From: Bdellovibrionales bacterium
Lineage (GTDB): Bacteria; Bdellovibrionota; UBA1018; CAIMNF01
DNA length: 64,000 bases
Direction of reading: 5' to 3'
Assembly (NCBI GenBank): GCA_947462765.1
Contig: CANHQK010000007.1
Span: forward strand, 1,438 to 65,437
The notes under the pieces were generated by a model. The model searched no databases. It worked only from the letters and a program-made list of their open reading frames with translations, and was not told the DNA's origin. The position numbers were made by a program, and so were the translations under genes. Positions within the stretch are counted from its first letter, which is position 1, and every line of letters begins with the position of its first letter. Positions 22,236 through 55,500 of the stretch are shown here, in pieces.

Positions 22236-22600
22236 TGCGCGTACTCCGGATCGTCCGCCAGCAAGATGGAGCGGTGGTGGCCCACCGGGCCCGCATCGCG
22301 GACGGTTTCTTGAGTCGTTTGAGAGGTCTGATCGGAACCACGAGGTTTACCGAGGGGGAAGGTTTGCTCTTTCCCCGGTGTAACAGCATTCATATGTGGA
22401 TGATGAGCATCCCGATCGATGCTGTTTTTCTGGGTAAGTGTGAGGCGGGTTGGAGAGTGCTCAGTACTCATCCGAGTCTGAAGCCCTGGAAGATCCTTCC
22501 AGTGGGTAATGGTAAAGCGGAGGATGTTCTCGAACTTCCTGTCGGGACCGTCGAGCGCCTCAAGATCCGTCACGGGGAGGTGTTATGCATCGTCTCGTGA
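22235..22600 (+). CDS. DUF192 (COG1430) family protein
   Basis: CNSIHMWMMSIPIDAVFL...VLELPVGT matches the DUF192 core (SIHTFGM.F.IDv.FLd). Overlaps the upstream stop. Confidence 0.55.
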   Translation: MRVLRIVRQQDGAVVAHRARIADGFLSRLRGLIGTTRFTEGEGLLFPRCNSIHMWMMSIPIDAVFLGKCEAGWRVLSTHPSLKPWKILPVGNGKAEDVLELPVGTVERLKIRHGEVLCIVS

Positions 22601-24252
22601 TTGTTGCAGGTCCGAACCGCGGGAGTGCATTCTCTCTGATCGAGGGAGAGAACACGATCGGCCGCCAGATGGATAACCATATCGTGCTCACCTCTTCGAA
22701 AGTATCCAAGCGGCACTGCGCGCTACTGGTTACCACGCAAGAGGTCATTTTGAGAGATGAGGGAAGCACCAACGGGACTTTTGTCAATGGTGCACTCTCC
22801 CGACGGCACACCATGAAACCCGGTGACAAGCTCGGTGTCGGAGAGTTTGTTCTGGAACTCGTACGTTCCGGGGTGCCCGCCCAGGTCTCGACGGGGCAGA
22901 CCGGATCGTTTTCCAATCCGCTCGACAGCGGGATGCTCCCTTCGAATCCGTTTGATCTCTCCGGTGGAGCCGGAGCCCTGGCTCTGCCGGGAGCCGCAAC
23001 CGCTCCGCTGAGATCCGGACCGGCTAACCTTCAGGAAGCCACTTTCGATGATCTCGCTCCGAAACAGGAGCTGCCCGAGGACCTTCCTGGCAAGCTCAAA
23101 TTCCTGTTCGAGGGCAAGATCATGCCCACATTCTATGGCATGCTGATGAAGAGTGAGCTCGGCAATATCCTCGCCGGCTTGCTCGGTATTGCCCTTTTGA
23201 TCTCTGTGTTCGCGTCGGTGATGCCCATGGAGAACATGGCCGAGCAGGGGATCCAGCGGGAAGCCAAAATACGCGGAACCGTCCTGGCTCGCGAGGTAGC
23301 GGATCGTTACGCTCCCCATTTCGTCAACCATACCGAATCACAAATCGATTTTTCGCTCCTCACGCAAGAGGAGAGCATCAAGATCGTCGCGCTCCTCAAC
23401 ATGGACCTCAACATCGTGGCTCCCCAGGCCCGTCTGGGGCAGTTGTTTTCAGTCGGTGGGGAGGCTGCCTTCGCCCGGAAAATGGTCAAGGAATACCGCG
23501 AGGGCCGTGAAAAAGGCGGCGGTATGTTTCTCGATGCCCACACCTATGTGCACATCGAGCCCATCAAGGCAGCGGATCCCCGGACCTACGCCAATGAGGT
23601 GGTCGCCCTTGCGCTCGTATCCATCGATTTTTCGCGCAATATGGTCACCGCTGGAGGCCTCGAAATCGCCTATGGCTCGGCCATCATTTATACGGCCATC
23701 ATCGGCCTGATTTTTTACTTCATCCTGTTGCGTCTGATCCAGAAGCCCTACGAGGTCATGAACGATGACCTCGACCAGGTGTTGAGGGGAGAGATTCCGA
23801 GGGTCACCAAGGAGTTCAAGCTGGGTCATCTCGAGAAGCTCTGGGACAACGTCAATGCCGCTGTTCAGAGGATGGGAAAGGGAGACTCCTCTGTAGAGGA
23901 GGGGACCGTGCTTTGGGATCAGGAATTCGCACCCTGGTTGGCGGTCGCGGAAGCCGGTCAAATGGGACTGATCGGCTTTGACGCCAATCTGATCATGGTG
24001 ACCGTGAACCCGTTTTTTTCGGATTTAAGTGGCATCCGAGGTGATTCGGTGGGGCAGACCCTGTCCCAAGTCGGTGATCAAGCCATGATTTCACTGGTGA
24101 CCGAGATGAAAAGCGGTGCGGAGCGCTCCGGTAGCCGGACCACTTCCGATAAGTTCGAGTTTCAGGGGATCGACTATTCGGTCGTCGCCACCCTGGTCGG
24201 TCCGAAAGACCAGGCCGGGATCGCCCTCCTGTTCAGAAAGAAGGAGTCCTGA
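22585..24252 (+). CDS. FHA-domain membrane protein (N-terminal FHA, Pro/Ala linker, TM helix, extracytoplasmic domain)
   Basis: FHA motif GRQMDNHIVL...SKRHCALL...LRDEGSTNGTFVNG. TM segment GLLGIALLISVFASV. Confidence 0.8.
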   Translation: MHRLVIVAGPNRGSAFSLIEGENTIGRQMDNHIVLTSSKVSKRHCALLVTTQEVILRDEGSTNGTFVNGALSRRHTMKPGDKLGVGEFVLELVRSGVPAQVSTGQTGSFSNPLDSGMLPSNPFDLSGGAGALALPGAATAPLRSGPANLQEATFDDLAPKQELPEDLPGKLKFLFEGKIMPTFYGMLMKSELGNILAGLLGIALLISVFASVMPMENMAEQGIQREAKIRGTVLAREVADRYAPHFVNHTESQIDFSLLTQEESIKIVALLNMDLNIVAPQARLGQLFSVGGEAAFARKMVKEYREGREKGGGMFLDAHTYVHIEPIKAADPRTYANEVVALALVSIDFSRNMVTAGGLEIAYGSAIIYTAIIGLIFYFILLRLIQKPYEVMNDDLDQVLRGEIPRVTKEFKLGHLEKLWDNVNAAVQRMGKGDSSVEEGTVLWDQEFAPWLAVAEAGQMGLIGFDANLIMVTVNPFFSDLSGIRGDSVGQTLSQVGDQAMISLVTEMKSGAERSGSRTTSDKFEFQGIDYSVVATLVGPKDQAGIALLFRKKES

Positions 24253-30711: not shown

Positions 30712-32406
30712 ATGCTGAATGCTTCCGTTTGTCTTCTCCTCAGTTTGCTTTCATTCCCGGTCGATGCAATCGCCCAGCAGGAAGCGGTGTCCCCCACACC
30801 GGCTGAGGGCGAAGGTGAGGAAAAAAAAGAACGGAAGCGTCGGCGGGCGCCTGAAGAAAGGGCTGCATATACGCGCTCGAGGTATTCCGCCGACAGGAGT
30901 GAGGCCGAGGCCGACCGACGAGCCTTGCTGCTGACTGCAGGGGTCGACAAAACAGTCGATCTGGAGGCCTCACTGAAGATCACCGGAGACACGAGCCAAA
31001 AAGTCCTGATCGGGAATGTCTCGGTGGTGAAAGTCCTTCCTGTGATTATCGGAGATCGGAAGCAATTGATTTTCAAACCGGAAGGGGTCGGAGAGACCAA
31101 CGTCACGATCCGGGATGATTCCGGCAATGTCAGACTCATCTTCGAGGTGATCGTCGCACAGGCCAACCAGATCCGGAACCTCGAGCGGCTACGAGAGAAT
31201 CTGAAGGAAGTCGAAGGAATCACGATCAATATCGAGGAAAAGAACATCGTGCTCCGCGGGGAGGTGCTCACCACGTCTGATTTTAGCATGGTGAACAATG
31301 AGTTGTCGGGTGATCTCTACGGAAAAGAGGTCATCAACAAGGTGAGAATGTCACCGGTTACACTCAACTTTCTTGCCAAGAGGATTGAGCAGGACATCCA
31401 GGTTTTCGCTCCCACAGTGAGGGCCTCGGTCATCAACGGTAAAATCATTCTCGAAGGCACGGTCGATAGCGAAGGCATCAAACAGCGCGCTTACAACCGA
31501 GCCTACTATTATCTGCCCATGGTCCGATTCAAAGAAAACGTCGGGTCCGATCAGAACGTGATTGAAATGGAGCAGGATAAGAAAACCTTCATTCTCCAGT
31601 CTGATATCACTGTTCAGACCCCCCCTCCAAAAAGAGAGAGCAAGCTCGTCAGGATGACCGTGTATTTCGTCGAGTTGGGCAAGGACTTTTTGAAAGCTTT
31701 CGGTTTCAAGTGGCAGCCCGGTTTCGCATCGGACCCCAGTATCAGCGTCGGGCAGACTGCGACGGGTGGAGTGGGGACCAGCGGAGGAGGGTTCACATTC
31801 AGTGGTACGCTGACGTCACTGTTTCCGACCATCAGCGCCCCGCCCTCTAATGCGTCCTATGGAAGGATCATGAAGTCTGCGACCGTCATTGTGAAGAACC
31901 GTGAGGAGGGAGAAGTCCGTGACCAGGTCCAGGTGCCTACTCAGGCCTTGGGGCAGGGTGGGACTCAGGGTAACGGACCAGCAGTTCAGGTCGGCTTCCA
32001 CATCAAGATGACGCCTTCCATTCTTGAGGGGCAGGATGTCGACGTGAACGTGGATATCGAGCAGAGCAATCAGGTGGGAAAGGGTGTGAACGGCACCCCG
32101 ATCGTGGCCACTCACAAGGTAAAGACCCGGCTCTATCTCAAGTCCGGCGAGACGGCCGCATTGACCGCTGTGAACAAACAGGACGTCGCCACTTCCTTCA
32201 ATCGGGATGACGCCGCTCCCGGAGCATTCCAGCAATCACAAGGGGGGGCCCAGACCAAGCCCCTGTTCAGTTTTCAACGGTCTAAGAACATGTCGAAGTC
32301 GAGGGGACAGTTTGTGATCTTCGTGAACCCGCAAGTGATCGACAACGCCTCAGAGGGCACAGAGGATTTGAAGAAGAATTTCCGTATGACATCGAGCACT
32401 CGCTGA
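30712..32406 (+). CDS. cpaC: Tad secretin CpaC/RcpA
   Basis: Signal peptide, BON-like N-terminal repeats, C-terminal secretin domain ending GQFVIFVNPQVID. Confidence 0.85.
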   Translation: MLNASVCLLLSLLSFPVDAIAQQEAVSPTPAEGEGEEKKERKRRRAPEERAAYTRSRYSADRSEAEADRRALLLTAGVDKTVDLEASLKITGDTSQKVLIGNVSVVKVLPVIIGDRKQLIFKPEGVGETNVTIRDDSGNVRLIFEVIVAQANQIRNLERLRENLKEVEGITINIEEKNIVLRGEVLTTSDFSMVNNELSGDLYGKEVINKVRMSPVTLNFLAKRIEQDIQVFAPTVRASVINGKIILEGTVDSEGIKQRAYNRAYYYLPMVRFKENVGSDQNVIEMEQDKKTFILQSDITVQTPPPKRESKLVRMTVYFVELGKDFLKAFGFKWQPGFASDPSISVGQTATGGVGTSGGGFTFSGTLTSLFPTISAPPSNASYGRIMKSATVIVKNREEGEVRDQVQVPTQALGQGGTQGNGPAVQVGFHIKMTPSILEGQDVDVNVDIEQSNQVGKGVNGTPIVATHKVKTRLYLKSGETAALTAVNKQDVATSFNRDDAAPGAFQQSQGGAQTKPLFSFQRSKNMSKSRGQFVIFVNPQVIDNASEGTEDLKKNFRMTSSTR

Positions 32407-32424
32407 AGAAGGGACGGACGGAGC

Positions 32425-34578
32425 ATGGGACACATCATCGCAGTGGTGGGAGGAAAAGGAGGGGTCGGGAAAAGTGTTTTCGCCGCGAACCTCGCGATCG
32501 CCTATCAGATGAACTTCAAGCAGCGTTCCTTGATTCTCGATCTCGACTTCCAGAGTCTCGGTGATCAGAACATCATTCTCGGATTGAATCCCCCGAAGAC
32601 AATCGTGGATGTCAGCAAGGCCCAGGTCGGCACCTGGGATCCGAAGGCCATGACTCCTTTCCTTGCCAATTCACCGCAGGGCTTCAGCTTCATCGGTGCG
32701 CCCCGGGAAGCTGCGCTTGCCAAGGACATCGATCTGGATGGACTCGGAAAGTTTCTCAAAGCCGCAGTGGGTGTTTTTCCGTGGGTGGTGATTGATTGCG
32801 GCAACGGAACAGAACCCCATGCCCTGAAGGCCATGGAGCAGGCGAGTCTGATTTTCGTCGTGACCACTCCGGACGTGATCGTTCTCAACCAGACGCGAAG
32901 GATTCTCGGCAAGGTCCAGGAGCTTCTTTTTCCACAAGAAATGGTACAGGTGGTGGTGAACCGCTATTCACCTAACAATGTGATCAATCCCCAGATGATC
33001 CAGAAGAGCATCAATAAGGCACCCTATTTTGCCATTCCCGAGGATGCAGCCACCTGTGAAGCATCGCTGACCAAGAGTCAGCCTTTCACCATGGTCAATC
33101 CGGGGGCGGCTATTTCGAGAGCTTTCTCGGATTTGGTTCGTCGGATGGATCAGAGCAAAATGCTTGATCAGCTGGCTAAACTGAACAAGCCCACCGGGGT
33201 GGCGCAGAAGGTCGGTGCGGCAGCGGTGGCGCCGACCGATGGAGGCGGAGAAAGCGGAGGCGGTTTGCTGGCCCGCTCAAAGTCGGCTCCCACGGATCCC
33301 TGGACCAACATGAAGCTCAGGATTCACAAGGCACTCATCGATGTCGTGGACATGAAGAAGATGAATGCGGATGTTGCGGATGCCAAGCAACGCGAGGTAT
33401 TGCGCGAAAAAACTCAAAAAGCGATTCTCGATGTACTGGCAAAAGAGGATGTGTCGACCCTTTGTCCGACACGTGAACTCAGAGCCCAGCTTGTAAAGGA
33501 AGTTCTCGACGAAGCCTTGGGGCTCGGACCGCTCGAGGATCTTCTCGCGGATGAAACGGTGACTGAGATCATGGTCAATGCTCGGGACCAGATCTACGTG
33601 GAACAAGGCGGAAAGCCTGGCTTATCCAAAACAACTTTTTCGAGTGAGCAGCAGATGATGAATGTGATCGAGCGGATCGTCACGCCGCTCGGCAGACGGG
33701 TCGATGAAAAGACACCGTATGTGGATGCCCGACTTGCGGATGGCTCGCGGGTTCACGTGATCATCCCTCCGCTAGCGCTCAGGGGCCCCACCATCACAAT
33801 CCGAAAATTTCCCAAGAAAAGAATCGTGTCTGCGGACTTGGTGAAGTTCGGTTCGATGACACAGGAGATCGCGGATTTTCTGCGGGCTTGCGTCGAAGCC
33901 AAACTGAATATCGTGGTTTCGGGCGGAACGGGATCCGGTAAAACCACTTTGCTCAATGTTTTATCCAACTTCATTCCAGCGACCGAGCGGATCATCACCG
34001 TCGAGGATGCAGCCGAACTCCAGCTCGGGCAGGAGCACGTGGTCCGGCTCGAGACCCGTCCCAAAAACATCGAGGGCGAGGGTGAGGTATCCATCAGGGA
34101 TCTGATCAAGTGTTGTCTCCGGATGCGGCCTGACCGGATTGTGGTCGGGGAGTGTCGGGGTGGCGAAGCCCTCGACATGTTGCAGGCTATGAACACGGGT
34201 CACTCCGGCTCGTTGACCACGGTGCACGCCAACAATCCCAGGGAGTGTATCGGACGTCTTGAAACGCTGGTGATGATGGCCGGGATGGGACTTCCCCTCA
34301 AGGCCATCCGGGAAACCGTGGCCAGTGCGGTCAATCTGATCATTCAGCAGTCGCGTCTGACGGATGGTTCGCGGAAGGTGACCTATGTATCGGAGGTGCT
34401 CGGGATGCAGGGCGAAACCGTTACCATCCAGGACATCTTCATCTACAAGCAGGAAGGCTTGGACAAGAACCGTAAGATTATTGGCAGGTTCGTGCCGACT
34501 GGTTTCATTCCTAAATTCGTCGAAGAAATGGAAGCAAAAGGCATGAAAATCTCACGGGGACTTTTCGCGGTCAAATAA
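32425..34578 (+). CDS. Fused CpaE/TadZ-like MinD-type ATPase domain plus CpaF/TadA secretion ATPase
   Basis: N-terminal deviant Walker A AVVGGKGGVGKS (ParA/MinD/CpaE type). C-terminal TadA ATPase (VSGGTGSGKTTLLNVL, Asp/His boxes). 717 aa. Confidence 0.85.
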   Translation: MGHIIAVVGGKGGVGKSVFAANLAIAYQMNFKQRSLILDLDFQSLGDQNIILGLNPPKTIVDVSKAQVGTWDPKAMTPFLANSPQGFSFIGAPREAALAKDIDLDGLGKFLKAAVGVFPWVVIDCGNGTEPHALKAMEQASLIFVVTTPDVIVLNQTRRILGKVQELLFPQEMVQVVVNRYSPNNVINPQMIQKSINKAPYFAIPEDAATCEASLTKSQPFTMVNPGAAISRAFSDLVRRMDQSKMLDQLAKLNKPTGVAQKVGAAAVAPTDGGGESGGGLLARSKSAPTDPWTNMKLRIHKALIDVVDMKKMNADVADAKQREVLREKTQKAILDVLAKEDVSTLCPTRELRAQLVKEVLDEALGLGPLEDLLADETVTEIMVNARDQIYVEQGGKPGLSKTTFSSEQQMMNVIERIVTPLGRRVDEKTPYVDARLADGSRVHVIIPPLALRGPTITIRKFPKKRIVSADLVKFGSMTQEIADFLRACVEAKLNIVVSGGTGSGKTTLLNVLSNFIPATERIITVEDAAELQLGQEHVVRLETRPKNIEGEGEVSIRDLIKCCLRMRPDRIVVGECRGGEALDMLQAMNTGHSGSLTTVHANNPRECIGRLETLVMMAGMGLPLKAIRETVASAVNLIIQQSRLTDGSRKVTYVSEVLGMQGETVTIQDIFIYKQEGLDKNRKIIGRFVPTGFIPKFVEEMEAKGMKISRGLFAVK

Positions 34579-34596
34579 CCCCAGTATCATGGAGGA

Positions 34597-35472
34597 ATGA
34601 GTTTCGCGATTCCTCACTGGCTGCTCGGCCTCGTCGTGTTTGTCTCGGCGTTGCTGGTTGCTTATCAGTTTTCAGGACGGATTCTCGACTGGGTGAGATT
34701 CCACTCGATCGGAACGCGGGACTACATCGCCGACAAGCTCAAGCTGATGATGATCGATCTTCCACTCGAGAAGATCCTCATGTACCAGGTCGGGTTTTCA
34801 TTCGGTCTTGCCGGGCTCGTGTTTCTGGCTTGTTTACCGAATTTAAAGGCTGGCGGGGCATTGGGCGCGGTTGTCGCTGTTGCTGCTTGGTTTCTCCCCA
34901 AGCCGATCGTGAATGTCCTGTATCAGAAGCGCGTGGACCGTTTTGTCGAACAAATGGTGGATGGACTCGGTCTCATGTCGAACGGGATGCGATCGGGTCT
35001 CTCGGTCTCCCAAGCGATGGGTCTGGTGGCCCAGGAAATGCCCGATCCCATCAAATCCGAGTTCGAGTTGGTGCTCAATCAGAACAAGCTCGGTTCCTCT
35101 CTTGAATCGGCCTTCATCGATCTTTCGAAACGCGTGGTGGCGGACGAGGTCGAGATGTTCGTGACTTCCGTGGTCATTCTCAAGGAGACCGGGGGAAATT
35201 TGGCGGAAACCTTCGACACCATCACCACCTTGATCCGTGAAAGGATCAAAGTCGAGAACAAGATCAAGGCCATGACGGCATCCGCCTTTTGGCAAGGGAT
35301 GATCCTACTCGGAGTACCGCCATTCATGGGATTGACGCTTTCCCAGTCCGATCCCGAACTCATGAGGCCGATGTTCGAGACCTGGCTTGGCTGGGTCGGC
35401 CTCTCTACCGTGGCAATTTTGATGTTGGTAGCTTATTTTGTAATCAAGAAGGTGACAAAAATCGATGTCTGA
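34597..35472 (+). CDS. Tad/Flp pilus assembly platform protein (TadB/TadC-like)
   Basis: T2SS-F domain with 3-4 TM helices. Confidence 0.75.
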   Translation: MSFAIPHWLLGLVVFVSALLVAYQFSGRILDWVRFHSIGTRDYIADKLKLMMIDLPLEKILMYQVGFSFGLAGLVFLACLPNLKAGGALGAVVAVAAWFLPKPIVNVLYQKRVDRFVEQMVDGLGLMSNGMRSGLSVSQAMGLVAQEMPDPIKSEFELVLNQNKLGSSLESAFIDLSKRVVADEVEMFVTSVVILKETGGNLAETFDTITTLIRERIKVENKIKAMTASAFWQGMILLGVPPFMGLTLSQSDPELMRPMFETWLGWVGLSTVAILMLVAYFVIKKVTKIDV

Positions 35473-37174
35473 GGTGAGAAGAATGACCAGAGTCTTGATC
35501 TTGTTGGGCGCATTGTTGTCGGTATCCAGTGCTTTTGCACGGGCTGATGTGAGTCTTCGGAACGGTAATTTTTTTGTTTCTTTGAGAGACATTTCTTTTC
35601 CGGGAGGGATCGAGCCCAAGATTGAACGGGTCTACAATTCAAAGTCCGACTTCCACGGGATGTTCGGTTACAGCTGGGGAACTGAGTACGAAACGCGCCT
35701 TGGCTTCGATCCTGACGGCAGTCTGTTATTGACCGAGTACGGAGGGGGCGCGAATATCCGTTTCGTTCCAAAGACCTTCACGGCCAAAGATGTTGAGGAT
35801 GGGATCAAGAGTGTGGTCGAGTCCGCACAGAAGGCGGGGATGGTCACCAGTGCGAAGGGCCTGGAAGACTATCGTAAACGTCTGAGAGAGAGTTCTGAAT
35901 TCCGAGCCAAGCAATACGCGATTTTTGTCAATAAGGGGAGTCTCCAGAGAAAAGTGATCGCGGAGAATACCCAGTTCATTTCCACTGACTATCAGTATCA
36001 GTATCTGACCCGCGTGAAGGGCGGATATACCCGGGTGATGGAAGCGGGCATGATTCAGAAATTCAACGAAGCCGGACGCTTGGTGCAGATCATGGATCGG
36101 AACCGGAACTTCGTCAATTTCTCATACGATTCGAATGGGAAGATCGCCCAGATGATCGACAACCAGAATCGCAAGATGGTTTTCTCCTACAATCAGTTCG
36201 GCCTGGTCGAGCGGATCGTGGGTGAGAGCGGAAAGAAAGCCGAATTCAAGTATTCAAAAGAGGGATTTCTGGTCTACAGCAAAGATGATGCAGGCGTGGA
36301 GAATACGTTTAAGTACACCGCCGACCAGTACCGCAATCTTTCCGAGATCGGTTATCCCAATGATCGGAATGCCAAGGGCGAACCCAAGCGGATGGTGGTC
36401 GGTTATTATGGTCCGGAGAAGAACTCCAGCGTGAAGTCGGTGGTGAATCTGGATGGTACAGTGAACGAATATGAGTACGAACTCGCGGGGAAGACCCCGG
36501 GTTATTATTCGGTCCGTGTGGTGTTGAAAGACGCCTCCGGAGCGAAACTCAATGATTCGAAGTACGAGTATTTTTACAAAACGAAGCCCAGTGGCGAGGA
36601 GTTCACTTCCCGGATGGTGACCACCGTGGACGGCGAGAAAACCGAGACCGTCTACGACGAGAAGCTCGGCTATCCCTTGAAGATCACAGCCAACGGAAAA
36701 ACCACGACCATGGAATATGACTTGAAGGGCCGGATGACCCGTAAGGTCACCCCTCTTCACACCACCACGCTCACTTATGATCCGGTGGTGGGAAAGGTGT
36801 CCAAGGTTGTCAAAAAAGTGGCGAGCGGAACCGTGATCTGGAGCGAATTTGAATACGATAAAACCACGGGGAACCTCTTGGTGGCCCGGAATAGCGATAA
36901 AAAACTGGTGAAGCTGATCTATGATTCACAGGGGCGGATCAGCGCTCTCGTGGACCAGGCGGGCCGACAGCTCACCTTCAAGTACAACGAGCTCTCCAAG
37001 CCGGTCGAAATCCGGGATGCCAAGCTCGGAACGGTGCGATTCACCTATAAAAACAGTGGCGAAGTCGACAAGGTGGACAGCAACGGGGGTGCGGGGGTGT
37101 CGGTGGAGGTGATGCGCGCATTGCAAAGCCTGATCGATATCACCGCTCCAGCTGGTGTCACCATGTCGATTTGA
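35465..37174 (+). CDS. Secreted YD-repeat (RHS-repeat) protein
   Basis: Signal peptide MTRVLILLGALLSVSSAFA. Many YD-type repeats (e.g. GRLVQIMDRNRNFVNFSYDSNGKIAQMID, KMVFSYNQFGLVERIVGESGKK, TTTMEYDLKGRMTRKV). Start overlaps the upstream platform gene. Confidence 0.7.
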   Translation: MSEVRRMTRVLILLGALLSVSSAFARADVSLRNGNFFVSLRDISFPGGIEPKIERVYNSKSDFHGMFGYSWGTEYETRLGFDPDGSLLLTEYGGGANIRFVPKTFTAKDVEDGIKSVVESAQKAGMVTSAKGLEDYRKRLRESSEFRAKQYAIFVNKGSLQRKVIAENTQFISTDYQYQYLTRVKGGYTRVMEAGMIQKFNEAGRLVQIMDRNRNFVNFSYDSNGKIAQMIDNQNRKMVFSYNQFGLVERIVGESGKKAEFKYSKEGFLVYSKDDAGVENTFKYTADQYRNLSEIGYPNDRNAKGEPKRMVVGYYGPEKNSSVKSVVNLDGTVNEYEYELAGKTPGYYSVRVVLKDASGAKLNDSKYEYFYKTKPSGEEFTSRMVTTVDGEKTETVYDEKLGYPLKITANGKTTTMEYDLKGRMTRKVTPLHTTTLTYDPVVGKVSKVVKKVASGTVIWSEFEYDKTTGNLLVARNSDKKLVKLIYDSQGRISALVDQAGRQLTFKYNELSKPVEIRDAKLGTVRFTYKNSGEVDKVDSNGGAGVSVEVMRALQSLIDITAPAGVTMSI

Positions 37175-41168: not shown

Positions 41169-41869
41169 GCGGTTTTGAGGTCTTGTCCCTTCCGGGCATC
41201 CGGAAGTTCTCCGAGGTGCATCGGCTGATGCTCGATCTCGTGGATCAACGGATTCGAGGGGAGATCCAGGATACTTTCATTTTTTGCGAACACCATCCGG
41301 TGATCACCCGCGGTCGTGGTTTGCAGTGGTCTTCCGCCAGGACTGAGCGTGCCATGCCTCCGCCTCTCGTACCCGCGGGAACGGACTACCTCGAGATCGA
41401 GAGGGGTGGGGATTTGACCTGGCACGGTCCAGGGCAGCTCGTGGTGTATCCGGTCATCGCACTCGGGGGAGAGGGACGATGGGGCGCTCTACTCGGGCGC
41501 GATATTGAAAAGTACGTGAGATTCCTGGAGGAGTGGTGGATCAGGGTTTTGGCTCAGGAAGGGATTGCCGCTCGAAGGGACCCGGCAGGTAGCGGGGTTT
41601 GGTCAGGTCGTCGCAAGCTTGCGTCGGTGGGGGTCGCAGTCAGGAAGTGGGTCACCTACCACGGCCTTGCAATGAATGTGGTGAACGAACTGGCTCCGTT
41701 CCGGGATTTTTCGCCTTGCGGATTCGGGGGTGAGGTGATGTCCCGAGTCGCTGATTTTCGAGGAATCGACCCGGGGCTCACCGGTTCGGATTGGCGTCAG
41801 TCTTGGGAGTCCCGATTGATCAGGGAACTTGAGGTCTGGGACGGAACCATCGATCAGCCAACCAAGTGA
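41165..41869 (+). CDS. lipB: Lipoyl(octanoyl) transferase
   Basis: FCEHHPVITRGRG motif. Overlaps the lpdA stop. Confidence 0.85.
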   Translation: MSGFEVLSLPGIRKFSEVHRLMLDLVDQRIRGEIQDTFIFCEHHPVITRGRGLQWSSARTERAMPPPLVPAGTDYLEIERGGDLTWHGPGQLVVYPVIALGGEGRWGALLGRDIEKYVRFLEEWWIRVLAQEGIAARRDPAGSGVWSGRRKLASVGVAVRKWVTYHGLAMNVVNELAPFRDFSPCGFGGEVMSRVADFRGIDPGLTGSDWRQSWESRLIRELEVWDGTIDQPTK

Positions 41870-42419
41870 GAATTGCTCCTCCGAGGACATCCCATACATA
41901 GTGTTGCTTGGTGGTCAGGGTCGAGAGGCAAATCAGGATGGCCCAACCAAAAAAAATCAAAAAGGCCCTTGGCCGGTCCCGGAACAGTAAGGTTGAGGTC
42001 AGCACCGAGCCTACGTGTAGACTCGGAAAACAGTTCAAGGGGGAGTCCCCGGTTCTTTGGAGCTCGAAAAGAAACCGGCTGAACGGATCAAGTTCCGGTG
42101 GCAATGGGAATCGGTCTCTGGGGTAAGTGGTCGGGTAGAGAATGAAAATGAGAGCGCTGGCAAGAAGCACCGCCAGGATGGATTTCACGTAGCGGTTCAA
42201 TGCCTCAGGGTGTCGGGTAAGGACGAAAGCCGAGATCAGCAAGGGGTATTCGCTCAGATAAATCCATATCGTTTCAGGGACGAAGGGAATGATTGAGTCG
42301 ATCCGGGTCAGCGGTAATTCGACGGGAGTGAATACGGGGTAATGATTGGGAATCAGGTAGAGGGGGGCGGCCAATCCGAACAGGGATAGCCCCCAGACTG
42401 CCTTGGTCCGAGTTTGCAT
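41820..42419 (-). CDS. PAP2-family membrane phosphatase
   Basis: PAP2 motifs SLHV and KQHYVWDVLGG, multi-TM. Confidence 0.7.
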   Translation of the reverse strand: MQTRTKAVWGLSLFGLAAPLYLIPNHYPVFTPVELPLTRIDSIIPFVPETIWIYLSEYPLLISAFVLTRHPEALNRYVKSILAVLLASALIFILYPTTYPRDRFPLPPELDPFSRFLFELQRTGDSPLNCFPSLHVGSVLTSTLLFRDRPRAFLIFFGWAILICLSTLTTKQHYVWDVLGGAILTWLADRWFRPRPQVP

Positions 42420-42599
42420 GTCTCATTACCCTATGCGGTTTTTTCTCCGGTCGCGACTGAAATTCTGTCTGGATTTTGGACAGCTGTCAGGTTCCATCGG
42501 AGGTGGGAAGTCGACCGTTGCGGAGGAGTTCCCCCATCGTGCAGGCGTTTCTCGAGAGGTGTCGGGGAGTTGCTGGGGTTCTGACTGCGGTGCTCGCCT

Positions 42600-42615
42600 T
42601 GGCACATCCTCTGCA
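42600..42615 (+). promoter_or_regulatory. Sigma-54 (-24/-12) promoter candidate: TGGCAC-N5-CTGCA
   Basis: TGGCACatcctCTGCA has exact consensus GG/GC spacing. It sits 64 nt upstream of the ATG at 42679; RBS GGAGGA at 42671. Confidence 0.5.
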
Positions 42616-42678
42616 AGGTTAGGAGGCAAGCGGTACGTCGAGTGGAAGTTGAGAGAATGAGAACAGTTCGGAGGACGT

Positions 42679-42864
42679 ATGAAAATCATCACTATTTTGG
42701 CCCTTTTTACAGCATTTGCATCTCCTGCCATCGGAGGGGTGGTTTCCAGTAAGCAATCTGGAAAAGCTCACTGCACCAAGAATGAACAGGATCAGCATTT
42801 CAAGTTGGCCGCAGGGTCGGGTGCTCAAGTGACCAAAGCGACCCATTCAGGGTCAGGCCGCTGA
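42679..42864 (+). CDS. Small secreted peptide (61 aa), paralog A
   Basis: Signal peptide MKIITILALFTAFASPAIG. Mature region ...SKQSGKAHCTKNEQD...GSGR. Good RBS. Confidence 0.45.
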   Translation: MKIITILALFTAFASPAIGGVVSSKQSGKAHCTKNEQDQHFKLAAGSGAQVTKATHSGSGR

Positions 42865-43036
42865 ACGACCAATCTTTAAGACAAGTCCATTGAGGTTTGG
42901 ATCGGGAAGTCGCCTGTCAAAAGCTTAGACAGCCGTCGGCTTCCCGGCTTCCTTTTTCTGAGTCTATTCAATGCGTTGAGCTGGTTAAGTGATTGTTATC
43001 AATAAACAATTAAGTGAGCCCACTCAAAACTGTGGT

Positions 43037-43052
43037 TGGCATGCTCTCTGCA
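43037..43052 (+). promoter_or_regulatory. Sigma-54 (-24/-12) promoter candidate: TGGCAT-N5-CTGCA
   Basis: TGGCATgctctCTGCA. Same spacing and same distance to the conserved downstream motif as the 42600 element. Confidence 0.5.
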
Positions 43053-43118
43053 AACTATCCGGGTAAGCGGTACGTTGAGCGAGAACGGGGATTTCCCCAC
43101 ACCACCCTTGGAGTGAAT

Positions 43119-43298
43119 ATGAAACTCATGACTTTGATCGCACTCTTGACCGCTTTCGCATCTCCCGCTTCGGCAGCCATCGTGGCGAGCAAACAATCCG
43201 GGAAAGCGCTCTGTTCGAAGAATCTCGCAGACCGGGTTCTGGCCTCGCTTGCTCCGGCCAAGGCCCGGGCGATTCAAAATGCAGGCTCCGGCCGGTAA
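43119..43298 (+). CDS. Small secreted peptide (59 aa), paralog B
   Basis: Signal peptide MKLMTLIALLTAFASPASA. Mature region ...SKQSGKALCSKNLAD...GSGR. Start taken at the internal ATG after RBS GGAGTG. Confidence 0.45.
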   Translation: MKLMTLIALLTAFASPASAAIVASKQSGKALCSKNLADRVLASLAPAKARAIQNAGSGR

Positions 43299-43311
43299 TG
43301 GCCGGGCAGGG

Positions 43312-43602
43312 TCATTTTTTCTGCTCTGAGCGCTCGATGATCTGCCTGAGGGCTTTCTGATCTTCCGGACTGATGTCCGCATCCAACTTGTGAAGTTCCT
43401 TCATGCGGGCTTCGAAACTGGCCTTGTACTCATCAGTGAGCAGTTTTGCCTGTTTCTCCGGATGGTACACTCCGGCAACCTTCACCCATTTCTCCACGTG
43501 ACGTGAGACCGTCACTCCTTGGATCTCGATCACATGGGAGAGCACCAGAACGATCAAAGCAAAAAGCGAGTATTTGAATACAGCCGAGATCAACGAGAAC
43601 AT
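43312..43602 (-). CDS. Small membrane protein, hypothetical
   Basis: N-terminal TM helix SLFALIVLVLSHVI followed by a charged helical tail. Confidence 0.4.
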   Translation of the reverse strand: MFSLISAVFKYSLFALIVLVLSHVIEIQGVTVSRHVEKWVKVAGVYHPEKQAKLLTDEYKASFEARMKELHKLDADISPEDQKALRQIIERSEQKK

Positions 43603-43611
43603 TCAAGGACC

Positions 43612-44022
43612 TCAGGCGGCTCCGCCGGCTTCCGATGGCTGGACAGTGGAAGTCACCAGGCTCTCGTGCAAGACCCGCATCACCTCATCTGTCTGGAAGG
43701 GCTTCACCACGTAATCTTTGGCTCCTGCCTGGATGGCTTCGGTCACCAGGTTTTCCTGGGTCATGGCTGATAGAATGACGATCCGCGCCTCGGGGTCGCG
43801 CTTCAGGATCACCCGTGTGGCGTCGATGCCATTCATTTTCGGCATCACCAGATCCATGATGACCAGATCCGGACGCGTCTCGAAATAGAGGCGGACGGCA
43901 TCATCGCCGTTTTCGGCCTCGCCCACCACCCGGTAGCCACGATTCTGAAGGATCTGCTTCAGCGTCTTGCGCACATAAGGAATATCATCGGCGATCAGAA
44001 CGGTTTTGAATGCATCCTTCAT
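43612..44022 (-). CDS. Single-domain response regulator (CheY-like receiver)
   Basis: VLIADDIPYVRK...DLVIMDLVMPKMNG...KPF. Start at MKDAFK. Confidence 0.85.
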   Translation of the reverse strand: MKDAFKTVLIADDIPYVRKTLKQILQNRGYRVVGEAENGDDAVRLYFETRPDLVIMDLVMPKMNGIDATRVILKRDPEARIVILSAMTQENLVTEAIQAGAKDYVVKPFQTDEVMRVLHESLVTSTVQPSEAGGAA

Positions 44023-44050
44023 TCGGCACCCCTCATTTATCATTGTAGGC

Positions 44051-45316
44051 TCATGAGGGGATTCTTTCAATGCTGACACTCTCGATTCTCCGTCGTGTCG
44101 CATCTTTGACGGTAAAACGAAGATTTCCGGCAGGAGTCTCAAAGTACAACTCATCTCCGGGTTCCGGGATGCGGGAAAATTGACGCAATAGGAAGCCGCC
44201 CAGGGTATCGTAGTCCCCCTCGGGGATCTCCAGTTGCAGTTCCTCGTTGATCTGAGTGATGGTCGCCCTGGCCTTGATGATCCAGGAGGTCTCGGAACTG
44301 GCTCGGATCAATTTCTTCTCCAGATCGTCCTCGTCTTCGAGATCTCCGACAATCTGCTCGAAAATATCCTCACGGGTCAGGATTCCGATAGCACCCCCGT
44401 ACTCATCCACCACGACCACCAGCTGAAAATCCTCTTCGATCATCCGGTTCAGGATCTCTTCAAGCTTCTGGTTTTCTGCGACATAGATGGCCGGCTTGAT
44501 GAATCGATCGATTCTCTGCCTGAGATCGGTTTGCCTGAAAATGGTGTGCAGTTCCAGCACCCCGATGATGTTGTCAATCCGCTCATCAAAAACAGGGATC
44601 CGGGAATGCTTTTTCTCCCGGTAGAGCTCGAAGGCTTCGAGGAGAGAACTTTGTTTCTCAATCGCATCCACTTGGACCAATGGAACCAGGCCGTCTTTGG
44701 CAATTCGATCACGGAACCGCAAGATCTTCCGGATCAGCCGTTTTTCATTCGACTTGATCTGGGTATCCCCCGAGTCCGAGGTGAGGAGTCCATGCAACTC
44801 GTCTTTCACGCTTTGCTTTTTCCCACTCCAGACCAGCTCCATGGGAGTGACGATCCGTGTGATCTGGGAAGTATAGAGCGTCATCAAGCGGATCAAGGGC
44901 GAAAGGATCTTCTGGGTGAGGAAAATCGGATAGGCTACTTTCGGAACGAGGATGTCCGCAAAACGCCGGTACATGAACTTGGGGATCAACTCTCCGAATA
45001 TGATCACAAGCAGGGAGCCGATCGCAGCTGCGTAGGCTTCACCGTGTTCGCCCATGAGTCTTCGGAACTCCAGCGTGAGGACGACAGAGGTGCCCATCAC
45101 GCAAGTGCTGGTCATAAGCAGGGTTGATGAGAGAATCCGATCCGGAGACTTGAGCAGTCGGAGGGCCAATTGTGCCCCCTTGTTTCCTTGCTTGCCTTTC
45201 CTTTTCAGTGCGAGCTTGTCTATCGAGAGAAGCGCCAGTTCGCTTCCTGAGTAAAATCCCTCGATCAGGATGAACATCAAAACGAGGGCAATGGTCGCGG
45301 GCGATAGTGCGATCAT
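44051..45316 (-). CDS. CNNM/CorC-HlyC family transporter (DUF21 + CBS pair + CorC_HlyC)
   Basis: N-terminal 4-TM DUF21, CBS pair, C-terminal CorC/HlyC domain. Confidence 0.85.
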   Translation of the reverse strand: MIALSPATIALVLMFILIEGFYSGSELALLSIDKLALKRKGKQGNKGAQLALRLLKSPDRILSSTLLMTSTCVMGTSVVLTLEFRRLMGEHGEAYAAAIGSLLVIIFGELIPKFMYRRFADILVPKVAYPIFLTQKILSPLIRLMTLYTSQITRIVTPMELVWSGKKQSVKDELHGLLTSDSGDTQIKSNEKRLIRKILRFRDRIAKDGLVPLVQVDAIEKQSSLLEAFELYREKKHSRIPVFDERIDNIIGVLELHTIFRQTDLRQRIDRFIKPAIYVAENQKLEEILNRMIEEDFQLVVVVDEYGGAIGILTREDIFEQIVGDLEDEDDLEKKLIRASSETSWIIKARATITQINEELQLEIPEGDYDTLGGFLLRQFSRIPEPGDELYFETPAGNLRFTVKDATRRRIESVSIERIPS

Positions 45317-52376: not shown

Positions 52377-54338
52377 ATGGAGTTGTTGAAACAGACCTCT
52401 CTCATCCTCGGCCTGGCGGCGCTCACTCTCGGAGTATGGACCTTGTTCCGACACTGGCGGAACAGGATCTCGGTTCTGTTCTCTTTCCTGTGCTTCCTGG
52501 TTTCTGTTTGGGCGCTCAGTTTTGTTTCTCACGCAACCCTCTTCGGGCGCCTGTCCTACGATATCCATCTGTTTTGTAATGTACTGCTCGCACCCACCGG
52601 GGTCCTGCTCATGTCGAGCTTTTTAGTCCGTAAAGTCGACGCGATCAGCCGTTTCCTGTTCCTGGCATCTCTTGCCGGTGGCTCGGTCTTGTGTTTCCTC
52701 ATTGCCTTTTCCCTGGGACAGGGCGAGATATTCCGGCTTGCCACCGGATTCTGGCCTTCATTCATCTTGGTTGAATACGTCCACCTGCTGGTGCTCGAGG
52801 CTCGGTGGATCACCAGGGGGGATGCGGGTCACATTCCCCCGGGCAGGAAAATGGTGCTCTATCTCGGTCCCATCGTCTCACTTGCATTTTGCACCTTCGA
52901 CCATATTCCTTTGATGGGCACTGTGATTCCCTCCATCGGCAATCTGCTGTTCGCGGTGTATCTCGGATTCGCAAGCCAGATCATCAATCCTAGGAAGCTC
53001 TTCGGGCTGGATTCCCTGGTTTCGAGGTTCCTCGCGGTTCTCACTTTGTCCCTGATCCTGACCGGGTTTTTCGCTCTTCTGTACAACACTATCAGCCGCT
53101 CTTTTCCCTTGTTCCTGCTCAATTCGTTCTTGATTTCCTTTGCGGTGCTCGCGCTCTGGAGCCCCCTCGTGACCTTCTTCCGCTTCATGGGCCGGAAGAT
53201 CTTTCCGCGCAAGCAGGATGAGGCCCGCGAGACCGTCGACCGATTCCGGATCCTCCTTTCAGCAGTCACTTCCCTGGAGGATCTGAAAGAGGGACTGAGA
53301 CAGTTCTTCTTGAAGACCTACCGTGCAGAGCGGGTCGAGATCACCTTGGATCCTTCTGGGATCTTGCTTCCTGAAACTGTGGAAGCCTACTGTCTTGAAC
53401 TCAGAGAAAAGGGCCTGCCTCCTGTCCTGCACCGGGTGATTTTGGAACAGGAAAGAGATGCCCTGTACACAAAAGAGGGACGCCGGGCTCTCGAGTTGAT
53501 CCTGGAGTACCTCGATGCAGGAGGGTTCGATGTAGTCCTTCCCGCCCATGTTTCTGAAAAAGTGGTGGCGCTCATCAGGATCCGGCTTTCATCAGGTCAC
53601 GCGCTCTCTGAAACGGGTTTTTTCCCTTTTCCGGGTGCTCCCGAGTTGATTGCCGAGCTGGCAGAGGGTACGTGTCGTCTGGCGCGGATCGGTGAGGCTC
53701 GTGAGCGAGAAAGGCTGATGTTGCTGGGTGAAATGGCTGCGGGACTGGCTCATGAGATCCGGAATCCCTTGGGCGCCATTCGTGGAGCGGCGGACCTCTT
53801 GCGGGAGCCCGGCCCCTTCGTCGATGTCATTCGGGACGAAACAGCCCGCTTGAACCGTCTGGTGGGGCAGTTCCTTGATTTCTCCAGGAATCCGCAAGAC
53901 GGGCGTCAGTGGGTCGATCTGTGCACCCTTCTCCCTCGCGCAATCCAGAATACCAACTTTCTAGTCCCTCCGGCCATTCGCCTCAGATTCGAGGGGCGCG
54001 AACTGCCGGTGTCAGTCGAGGTGGTGCCGGACTCGATCCAACAGGTGCTCTCCAATCTCATTCAGAATTCCGTCAAGGCGCTGGAGGGGGTTCGTGATGC
54101 CGAAATCATCGTGCGGGTCGAGCAGCAGGGTTTCTCGGTGACGGACAATGGAATCGGTATGAGTGACTCGGTGAGGTCGAGAGTGTTGGAACCGTTTTTC
54201 ACCTCATCCGTGGGTGGAACCGGTCTCGGCCTTTCCATTTGCGAGCGACTCATCCGCTTTGACCGTGGCTGGCTCAAGCTCGAATCGACTCCGGGGCAGG
54301 GGACCCGCGTGGAAGTGGGGTACCCGGATGCGCGATAA
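52377..54338 (+). CDS. Sensor histidine kinase with N-terminal multi-TM (7TMR-like) sensor
   Basis: About 8 TM helices, then HisKA (LAHEIRNPLGAI) and HATPase_c (GTGLGLSI). Confidence 0.85.
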   Translation: MELLKQTSLILGLAALTLGVWTLFRHWRNRISVLFSFLCFLVSVWALSFVSHATLFGRLSYDIHLFCNVLLAPTGVLLMSSFLVRKVDAISRFLFLASLAGGSVLCFLIAFSLGQGEIFRLATGFWPSFILVEYVHLLVLEARWITRGDAGHIPPGRKMVLYLGPIVSLAFCTFDHIPLMGTVIPSIGNLLFAVYLGFASQIINPRKLFGLDSLVSRFLAVLTLSLILTGFFALLYNTISRSFPLFLLNSFLISFAVLALWSPLVTFFRFMGRKIFPRKQDEARETVDRFRILLSAVTSLEDLKEGLRQFFLKTYRAERVEITLDPSGILLPETVEAYCLELREKGLPPVLHRVILEQERDALYTKEGRRALELILEYLDAGGFDVVLPAHVSEKVVALIRIRLSSGHALSETGFFPFPGAPELIAELAEGTCRLARIGEARERERLMLLGEMAAGLAHEIRNPLGAIRGAADLLREPGPFVDVIRDETARLNRLVGQFLDFSRNPQDGRQWVDLCTLLPRAIQNTNFLVPPAIRLRFEGRELPVSVEVVPDSIQQVLSNLIQNSVKALEGVRDAEIIVRVEQQGFSVTDNGIGMSDSVRSRVLEPFFTSSVGGTGLGLSICERLIRFDRGWLKLESTPGQGTRVEVGYPDAR

Positions 54339-55500
54339 AGTCGTGATCATCGATGATGAGGCGAACCTCAGGATGATCCTCGAGGCGACCTTGGTGCGTG
54401 CGGGGTACGATGCTGTCGCATTTCCCGGATTGGAAGAGGCGAAGAGTGTCATCGACACGGAGGATCTGGCGGCAGTCCTGACCGACCTCCAGATGCCCTC
54501 CCATGACGGGATGGCGGTCCTGCAATATTGCCATCAGTACACCCCCGATCTGCCCGTGATCCTCCTGACCGCTTATGGAACGGTAGAGAGGGCGGTTGCA
54601 GCACTCAAGGCCGGTGCTTTCGACTTCGTGGTCAAACCTTTCGATCATGGCGACCTTCTCCGCACCCTTGAAAAAGCCTGTCAAAATCGCCGATTCCGTC
54701 GTCGGGAACCGGCGCTCGAGATCATGAGTGCGGTGGGTGTCGGTCCGGTTCCCGTCCCGCTATTCGGTCAGGAGCCTTCGACTGTGCGCTTGAGGGAGGA
54801 GGTCGAAAGGATAGCGAAGACGGACTCGGCTGTCTGGATGTCCGGAGAGGTTGGTACGGGCAAACGATCGGTGGCCTATGAGATTCACCGTAAGTCCGAT
54901 CGTTCGCGGCATCCCTTCGTCCAGGTGTCATGCGCCACCTTGCCCCCGGTCTTCCAGTTGACGGAGCTGTTCGGTGTCGAAAAGGGGGCTAGCCCTGTGA
55001 ATTTGTTCAGCAAGCCAGGGGTCTTCGAGTTGGCCCAGGGAGGAACGCTCTTCATCGAGGAGATCGACAGCCTGTCGATCGAAGCCCAGAACGCGTTTTT
55101 CACCTTGCTTGAGACCGAGAGGTTCTCGAGAGTCGGAGGGGTCCGCCTGTTTCCTGCCGACTTCAGGATCATTGCGACCAGCTCGAAAAATCTCGATCTC
55201 GAGGTCCGGGACGGGGCATTCCATGTCGAACTTTATTACAAACTCACCGCTTCGATGCTGGAGCTCCTGCCACTCCGGAGCCGCACGGCGGATATCGAGA
55301 CGGATCTTCTGCCCTATTTTCTTTCGCGTGCTTGCCGACGCAGGGGGGTTCCATTGATGAACATCACTCCCGAGGCATTGGATGTTCTTCTCGGTCGATC
55401 ATGGCCGGGAAATCTTGGCGAACTCGAGCGTGCGATTCAGAGAGCGGTGGATCATGCCCGGGGAGATACACTCGGGATTCAGGATTTCTCGAGAGATTGA
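54328..55500 (+). CDS. NtrC-family response regulator (receiver + AAA+ sigma-54-interaction-like domain) with degenerate GAFTGA and no C-terminal HTH
   Basis: Receiver domain (VVIIDDE...DLQMP), Walker A GEVGTGKR, ELFGVEKGASPVN in place of ESELFGHEKGAFTGA, and SWPGNLGELE. Start overlaps the kinase stop. Confidence 0.85.
   Translation: MRDKVVIIDDEANLRMILEATLVRAGYDAVAFPGLEEAKSVIDTEDLAAVLTDLQMPSHDGMAVLQYCHQYTPDLPVILLTAYGTVERAVAALKAGAFDFVVKPFDHGDLLRTLEKACQNRRFRRREPALEIMSAVGVGPVPVPLFGQEPSTVRLREEVERIAKTDSAVWMSGEVGTGKRSVAYEIHRKSDRSRHPFVQVSCATLPPVFQLTELFGVEKGASPVNLFSKPGVFELAQGGTLFIEEIDSLSIEAQNAFFTLLETERFSRVGGVRLFPADFRIIATSSKNLDLEVRDGAFHVELYYKLTASMLELLPLRSRTADIETDLLPYFLSRACRRRGVPLMNITPEALDVLLGRSWPGNLGELERAIQRAVDHARGDTLGIQDFSRD

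Follow-up and report, generated by a model that had tools for sequence, protein, structure and literature searches.

Two tandem genes for small, putatively exported peptides, each with a putative sigma-54 promoter and upstream enhancer, in a Bdellovibrionota genome

In a 64-kb stretch of contig CANHQK010000007.1 from a Bdellovibrionales bacterium, referred to here as the window, we have characterized two small paralogous open reading frames (ORFs), which we name pepA and pepB. The comparative evidence makes it quite probable that they form two independent sigma-54 transcription units derived from an old tandem duplication. Each unit consists of a putative upstream enhancer, a -24/-12 promoter element, a conserved leader and a gene for a short precursor with a predicted signal peptide (Table 1), and the two units can be aligned with each other from the promoter through the stop codon. 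As read from sequence, the regulation is canonical; the peptides form a new family confined to a single clade.

Results

A sigma-54 (RpoN)-dependent promoter is recognized by GG at -24 and GC at -12 with a fixed spacing (TGGCAC-N5-TTGCW), and both sites in the window, TGGCACATCCTCTGCA before pepA and TGGCATGCTCTCTGCA before pepB, have these features. The motif TGGCAY-N5-CTGCA has only these two matches on the two strands of the window, where 0.04 would be expected, and none of 100 shuffles reached two. With a looser consensus and one mismatch allowed, four additional sites appear in the window, which is about chance level, and the one of them that was checked (48531) lies inside the Lon gene. 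DNA for 15 related loci was obtained via genome and metagenome scans and contig look-ups, and in the 207 kb made up of the window and these loci the strict motif occurs exclusively upstream of peptide genes. The samples behind the related loci are freshwater, and the relatives include two pond metagenome-assembled genomes (MAGs) labelled 'Proteobacteria bacterium' and, in addition, one labelled 'Bdellovibrio sp. ZAP7' (NCBI taxonomy: Bdellovibrionota). We compared the cis-elements across 14 related genes and treated two distant loci, L014 and L015 (GCA_048222835.1), separately. The element TGGCAY-N5-NTGCW precedes all 14 genes and also the genes in L014 and L015, where TGGCAT-N5-GTGCA before the peptide gene is the sole -24/-12 site. 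When the intergenic region was aligned in four genomes and the invariant columns were counted, they made up 58-79% of the -24/-12 element, 12-14% of the -11 to -1 stretch and 9-20% of the spacers. A conserved -24/-12 element, followed by free positions from -11 to -1 and by a conserved transcript from about +1, is the pattern predicted by a sigma-54 promoter. A consensus scan of the plus strand from 42300 to 43450, which is a weak test, found no sigma-70-like promoter. An earlier sequence-only reading of this DNA had proposed the two sigma-54-type promoters with the same motifs and coordinates, which our results bear out, and the element proves to be conserved before every family member examined. 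Its distance of about 65-80 nt between motif and ORF is better given as 79 and 82 nt from the motif start to the ATG, or 63 and 66 nt from the motif end.

Further upstream, each unit carries the inverted repeat CTGTC-N9-GACAG, a putative enhancer or upstream activating sequence (UAS), whose start lies 135 bp before the promoter motif at pepA and 123 bp before it at pepB. These two are the only exact copies in the window, where 0.05 would be expected. In the four-genome alignment, 77% of the columns of the pepA enhancer are invariant against 9% in the neighbouring spacer, and 75% are invariant in the segment that the pepB enhancer shares with a hairpin. A relaxed form of the repeat, CTGTN-N9-NACAS (that is, TGT-N11-ACA), is found 120-146 bp upstream of the promoter motif in 14 of the 14 related genes, and L014 and L015 have GTGTA-N9-GACAG starting 112 bp upstream. 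The start-to-start distances between repeat and promoter fall into groups at 112, 120-123, 132-135 and 145-146 bp that differ by about one helical turn, and in the single-copy loci a second TGT-N11-ACA lies 21 bp, or two helical turns, downstream of the first. Such an arrangement is that of a sigma-54 promoter with its enhancer some 100-150 bp upstream, to which a bacterial enhancer-binding protein (bEBP) is predicted to bind. One more UAS-like match, at L001:19640, we treat as chance, since it falls within coding sequence and has no conserved equivalent in the window. Between its enhancer and promoter, pepB has an AT-rich tract that may represent a bending region or an integration host factor (IHF)-like one; exact WATCAANNNNTTR matches at the corresponding position occur in L009 and L011a only.

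Table 1. Features of the pepA-pepB region, with positions in the window
Feature	Position	Strand	Remark
PAP2-family gene, divergent from pepA	41820-42419	-	in only some relatives; absent from L002 and L008-L012
Putative pepA enhancer (UAS), CTGTC-N9-GACAG with directly abutting third half-site CTGTC	42465-42488	+	rarity, conservation
pepA -24/-12 promoter, TGGCAC-N5-CTGCA	42600-42615	+	motif scan, conservation
pepA leader, about 53 nt, GA-rich	42626-42678	+	conservation; box GCAAGCGGTACGT 42626-42638; GGAG 42670-42673
pepA	42679-42864	+	61-aa precursor; predicted signal peptide MKIITILALFTAFASPAIG; predicted 42-aa mature peptide, net +4, one Cys
Hairpin CGGGAAG...CTTCCCG (42903-42946) with T-run (42953-42957)	42903-42957	+	read as pepA terminator
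Putative pepB enhancer, CTGTC-N9-GACAG	42914-42932	+	inner part of the pepA terminator hairpin
AT-rich tract between pepB enhancer and promoter	42986-43016		sequence reading, partly conserved
pepB -24/-12 promoter, TGGCAT-N5-CTGCA	43037-43052	+	motif scan, conservation
pepB leader	43063-43118	+	conservation; box GTAAGCGGTACGT 43063-43075; GGAG 43110-43113
pepB	43119-43298	+	59-aa precursor; predicted signal peptide MKLMTLIALLTAFASPASA; predicted 40-aa mature peptide, net +6, one Cys
Terminator-like hairpin with T-run after pepB	43297-43326	+	common with the convergent minus-strand operon
96-aa single-pass membrane protein (TM96)	43312-43602	-	convergent neighbour
Stand-alone CheY-like receiver	43612-44019	-	convergent neighbour

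The leaders are conserved as sequence, not as structure. Across the four genomes 87% of the columns of the pepA leader are invariant despite saturated synonymous sites, as are 72% of those of the pepB leader. The string AAGCGGTACGT is found exactly at 42628 and 43065, 12 nt past each promoter motif, and the box GCGGYACGT is present in 13 of the 14 related genes at 29-33 nt after the motif start (27-31 nt when its GYRW prefix is counted), with the remaining gene, L002A, one base off. This box occurs nowhere in the 207 kb but upstream of peptide genes, and it is lost in L014 and L015. It sits at, or a few bases from, the predicted transcription start, and its distance to the -12 element varies by a few nucleotides among loci. 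A GGAG site stands 9-11 nt before the ATG, again in 13 of 14 genes. Single-sequence folds of the leader RNA were no better than those of shuffles (z = +0.8 and +1.2), the 12-sequence leader alignment contained no consensus pairs, and Rfam returned no match at E <= 1 for 41500-44500. Several candidates were rejected: a pepA stem GUACGUC/GACGUAU at the start codon is invariant, hence uninformative, and absent in pepB and the distant members; an upstream ORF in the pepA leader (GTG 42642) is shifted in frame between genomes by a 1-nt indel; and reading TGCAA...CGT as an extracytoplasmic-function (ECF)-type promoter fails on a spacing of 18-21 nt across loci. As to its role, the box could serve as an operator, act as a signal within the initially transcribed region or bind a protein or small RNA (sRNA). 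A scan of the genome contigs for the composite TGGCAY-N5-YTGCW-N12-AAGCGGTACGT gave no match, a zero that says nothing on the regulon since the pattern is too strict; the related MAGs deviate from it by an 11-nt spacing at pepA and by GAGCGG at pepB.

The two ORFs are real genes, given their codon-position invariance and low ratios of nonsynonymous to synonymous substitution (dN/dS). In the four genomes 85, 95 and 26% of first, second and third codon positions are invariant in pepA, and 80, 90 and 36% in pepB, so that third positions range over 26-36% in the two genes. Against orthologues, dN/dS is 0.03-0.08 for pepA and 0.09-0.14 for pepB; in the pepA core, window-orthologue pairs differ by 0 non-synonymous and 11-12 synonymous changes, and the variable tail has an omega of 0.08-0.21. 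Selection on the orthologues is therefore purifying, tail included, and not diversifying. In the codons of the signal peptides (42679-42735 and 43119-43175), dS between the window and orthologues is 0.35-0.74, against values above 1 or saturated elsewhere in the genes, which suggests an added nucleotide-level constraint at the 5' coding end, continuous with the conserved leader. A 94-aa ORF starting with GTG at 43014 is an artefactual upstream extension of pepB, whose true ATG is at 43119. In public data the gene calls of pepB orthologues sometimes run upstream through the promoter in the same way, as in the 85-aa P0026. Such extended calls (43014-43298 here) hide the N-terminal signal peptide.

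PepA and PepB are 51% identical (E = 2e-19) and have in common SKQSGKAxCxKN and a C-terminal GSGR, so the paralogous pair described earlier stands. The 60-aa ORFs with 40-aa mature peptides of that description are right as to the signal peptide, and their sizes become 61 and 59 aa, with predicted mature parts of 42 and 40. A word-indexed search for the family retrieved only eight clusters, all of 60-61 aa; a HMMER profile search of 1.84 billion representatives and a second profile search raised the number to about 35, nearly all 58-72 aa and none with a Pfam domain or an informative name. A 740-aa repeat protein, P0017, that came up in the profile search is a low-complexity false positive. All 31 family members that we aligned have an n-h-c signal peptide (MK, 12-15 hydrophobic residues and (S)PA-x-A/G) in the same alignment column, followed by a mature part of 39-44 residues with exactly one Cys. 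The small residues at -3 and -1 are those expected for Sec export and signal peptidase I when judged by rule, and they place the predicted cleavage after AIG in PepA and after ASA in PepB. The Cys belongs to the family core, (G/A/E)VVSSK(Q/E)xGKA(H/L/F)CxK(N/M)xxD; it follows the predicted cleavage site at a distance of 13 residues, in the context GKA[HLF]C, and not in a lipobox [LVI][ASTVI][GAS]C. The class III signal peptide (G|F-T-L-x-E) of type IV pilins, a classic target of sigma-54 and PilR, with its hydrophobic N-terminal helix, is likewise absent from all members. The peptides have a net charge of 0 to +7, are rich in Ala, Ser, Lys and Gly and mostly end in K or R, the GSGR terminus being limited to the two-copy subclade. 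Their tails are variable, cationic and predicted to be disordered. No Pfam match at E <0.01 was obtained for any of the 31 members, and neither NCBIfam nor PDB gave a credible match for the family. The AlphaFold model made with the 31 sequences has a predicted local distance difference test score (pLDDT) of 58; apart from the helix of the signal peptide it shows just one short helix (residues 36-45), consistent with a disordered peptide.

Two tandem peptide genes are present in the window, in L001-L003, L006 and L011 and on the contig carrying P0007; L008, L009, L010 and L012 have one. Because the distant relatives are single-copy at the same position and the GSGR subclade is two-copy, the pair is best read from sequence as an old tandem duplication of one ancestral unit within the GSGR-ending subclade, and it has been maintained as a pair in several genomes. 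The hairpin after pepA has a stem of about 15 bp in the predicted fold, with a terminator-like site called at 42935-42948, and its outer stem CGGGAAG/CTTCCCG recurs in L009, in the canonical terminator behind the single peptide gene of that locus. It is behind single-copy genes that the terminators are clearest, and there they have the canonical form. Since the centre of the pepA hairpin is the pepB enhancer, the duplication would have put the second enhancer inside the first terminator.

The surroundings of the peptide genes are common to the loci and consist of housekeeping genes, with lipA, E2, lpd and lipB upstream on the plus strand and, in outward order on the minus strand downstream, the genes for TM96, the CheY-like receiver, two CNNM proteins and Lon. 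TM96 and the receiver adjoin a peptide gene in all loci and are transcribed with the CNNM/Lon operon; a functional link between them and the peptides is possible. In L014 (5579-6551) and L015 (1866-2838) the receiver, TM96 and peptide genes are inverted as a block relative to lpd and CNNM, which would count as weak, single-event evidence for such a link. The peptide gene there encodes a diverged 67-aa member of the family, which reads MKLLTILTVLASIGASPAIA and then YDST...FCDKDKG... In the same two loci lipB is replaced by a gene for a 1060-aa protein without Pfam domains.

Discussion

In the model that we propose, whose parts are the sequence features above and whose steps of activity are all inferred, an NtrC-family enhancer-binding protein that has a DNA-binding domain and is encoded outside the window would bind CTGTC-N9-GACAG and the adjacent half or full second site. 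DNA looping, probably aided by the AT-rich or IHF-like tract, would bring this activator to the closed RNA polymerase-sigma-54 complex on TGGCAY-N5-xTGCA, and ATP hydrolysis would then open the promoter. The transcript would start about 12 nt past the -12 GC with an unstructured, GA-rich leader of some 50 nt beginning with the box GYRWGCGGYACGT, which could work as an operator or exert control at the RNA level, and the GGAG 9-11 nt upstream of the AUG would lead to translation of a 59-61-aa precursor. After Sec export, signal peptidase I would cut behind A-x-A/G at residue 19 and yield cationic, largely disordered peptides of 40-42 residues, rich in Ala, Ser, Lys and Gly, with the conserved N-terminal core VVSSKxxGKAxCxKNxxD, whose lone periplasmic Cys would let them dimerize through a disulfide or be joined to a partner. 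We speculate that the products are signal-induced periplasmic or extracellular envelope peptides, possibly modulators of a membrane sensor, and not toxins. A bolder version, which we regard as a long shot, is that they are Sec-exported signalling or effector peptides of a freshwater Bdellovibrionota clade, that A and B form a dimer through a disulfide between their Cys residues and are sensed by TM96 and the receiver, and that the leader box is a control site of a new kind, acting on sigma-54 transcripts after initiation.

Several observations weigh against this model. The divergent PAP2 gene has a sigma-70-like minus-strand promoter that overlaps the pepA enhancer, and this overlap could explain part of the conservation of the enhancer where PAP2 is present; it is unable to do so in L002 and L008-L012, because the gene is absent there. 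Exact IHF consensus matches are found in just 2 of the 14 upstream regions, and the leader box has no explanation in the model and no counterpart that we could name. The cleavage of the signal peptides follows from sequence rules alone, and the function of the peptides is a guess, the AlphaFold model being of low confidence. No rpoN gene and no DNA-binding bEBP, as judged by GAFTGA and RpoN box motifs, was found in the window or the fetched flanks. The NtrC-like protein encoded at 54214-55500, the only one nearby with a Sigma54_activat domain, also has REC and AAA-lid domains. It is unlikely to be the activator, since it lacks a helix-turn-helix (HTH) domain and carries a degenerate GAFTGA loop (GVEKGASPVN). 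This AAA+ regulator is atypical and possibly independent of sigma-54. An RpoN-like gene, bd0843, has been reported in Bdellovibrio bacteriovorus HD100 (PMC3464611).

Other explanations of the same locus have to be considered. The sequence-only reading had taken the peptides for a diversifying signal or bacteriocin-like pair, that is, a bacteriocin, microcin or peptide pheromone under diversifying selection. It is true that the products are small, cationic and exported, that the paralogues diverge chiefly in the C-terminal half, and that the tail of PepB could form an amphipathic helix. However, selection is purifying everywhere, even in the tail, and the pair is old and has been kept, neither of which agrees with that reading. 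The signal peptide is of the Sec type with A-x-A in 31 of 31 members, with a GG at the cleavage site in only part of the A orthologues, and some 8-10 kb around about ten loci contain no gene for an ABC exporter with a C39 peptidase, for immunity or modification, or for a quorum-sensing kinase. The setting, moreover, is a collinear housekeeping region and not a variable island. We therefore consider a bacteriocin or pheromone pair very unlikely. It is scarcely credible that the motifs arose by chance or that the transcripts are non-coding, as small RNAs or with untranslated ORFs. The leader is indeed more conserved than the coding sequence, and there is the precedent of glmY and glmZ, paralogous sRNA genes behind sigma-54 promoters with TGTC-N10-GACA sites (PMC3045617). 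Nevertheless, the motifs occur far above expectation, the codon positions and dN/dS (0.03-0.14) carry a coding signature, the ORF, the GGAG site and the signal peptide are kept down to about 35% identity, and there is neither an Rfam match nor a consensus RNA structure.

Another explanation is that the peptides are periplasmic feedback modulators of a sensor kinase or of the TM96/CheY-like module, by a logic like that of ZraP or CpxP. It is common for systems of sigma-54 and a bEBP to induce small envelope proteins with a feedback effect on the sensor, such as ZraP on ZraSR and PspA on PspF, and by analogy this precedent would favour such a role, as would the position of the peptide gene, which adjoins the TM96-receiver pair and is convergent with it in every locus, the inverted block of L014 and L015 included. 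On the other side, the whole region is collinear, so that adjacency says little, and the inversion is a single event. TM96 and the receiver belong to the minus-strand operon and are not co-transcribed with the peptides, and the peptides have no sequence similarity to ZraP, CpxP, Spy or any Pfam family. On balance, a sensor modulator is unlikely.

Two sigma-54 units, in our preferred reading, can be compared with several known systems. In Enterobacteriaceae, the sigma-54 promoters of glmY and glmZ are activated by GlrR/QseF and IHF from TGTC-N10-GACA sites (PMC3045617). As in that system, a sigma-54 promoter stands before each of two homologous small genes, and TGTC...GACA-type repeats lie more than 100 bp upstream; in glmY and glmZ, IHF-type sites are found between repeat and promoter (PMC3045617). 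In contrast, the spacing in all our loci is N9 and not N10, there are one or two sites instead of three, the products are predicted secreted peptides instead of sRNAs, and the phylum is another. The glmY/glmZ system is the closest architectural analogue, and pepA and pepB are not members of the GlrR/QseF regulon. ZraP, CpxP and Spy are small Sec-exported envelope proteins, one of which, ZraP, is expressed from a ZraSR-dependent sigma-54 promoter. PepA and PepB appear to resemble them in being small and Sec-exported and, for ZraP, in promoter type. They differ in having no sequence or Pfam (LTXXQ) match, in being about 40 aa and predicted disordered rather than about 120-140 aa and helical, and in having no adjoining sensor/bEBP pair. 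Entericidins A and B (ecnAB) are tandem paralogous, very small exported peptides with their own promoters; as lipoproteins they carry a lipobox, and they do not depend on sigma-54. The tandem arrangement of very small exported-peptide genes with a promoter each is the same here, whereas the sole Cys of our peptides stands well inside the mature part (KAHC/KALC) with no lipobox, behind a sigma-54-type promoter. Class II microcins and other bacteriocins with a double-glycine (GG) leader are likewise small precursors of cationic, Gly/Ala/Ser-rich mature peptides. These bacteriocins are recognized by a GG leader, an adjacent exporter and immunity gene, and rapid evolution of the mature peptide; our genes have none of these, with a Sec signal peptide, no peptidase-containing ABC transporter (PCAT) or immunity gene, and no diversifying selection.

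What these results provide is a family of exported mini-proteins, unannotated and limited to one clade (about 35 clusters, without a Pfam or NCBIfam model), and, for uncultured relatives of predatory bacteria, a complete cis-map, validated by comparison, that runs from the enhancer through the sigma-54 promoter and the leader box to the terminator. The combination of TGTC-N9-GACA, TGGCAY-N5-NTGCA and GCGGYACGT offers a way to track down the cognate enhancer-binding protein together with its regulon, and the locus is a clean case of a sigma-54 unit duplicated along with its enhancer. No general principle is altered by the finding.

Other genes of the window

The sigma-70-like promoter of the PAP2 gene reads CTGACA-17-CAGAAT on the minus strand within 42462-42490, and the divergent PAP2 and pepA units may interfere with each other. 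The gene for the atypical NtrC-like regulator (54214-55500, plus strand; likely start MRDKVVIIDDE) follows a histidine kinase gene (52377-54338, plus strand). A 555-aa protein encoded at 22585-24252 on the plus strand has a single recognisable domain, which is N-terminal and FHA/YscD-cytoplasmic-like. A conserved cluster at 30712-37174 (plus strand), upstream of the lipoate genes, encodes a secretin, a 717-aa ATPase, a T2SSF protein and a DUF6531/RHS-repeat protein. The ATPase has a ParA/CbiA-like domain fused to a T2SSE (CpaF-like) domain, and this fused protein and its RHS neighbour are kept in all relatives (L008, L009 and L012).

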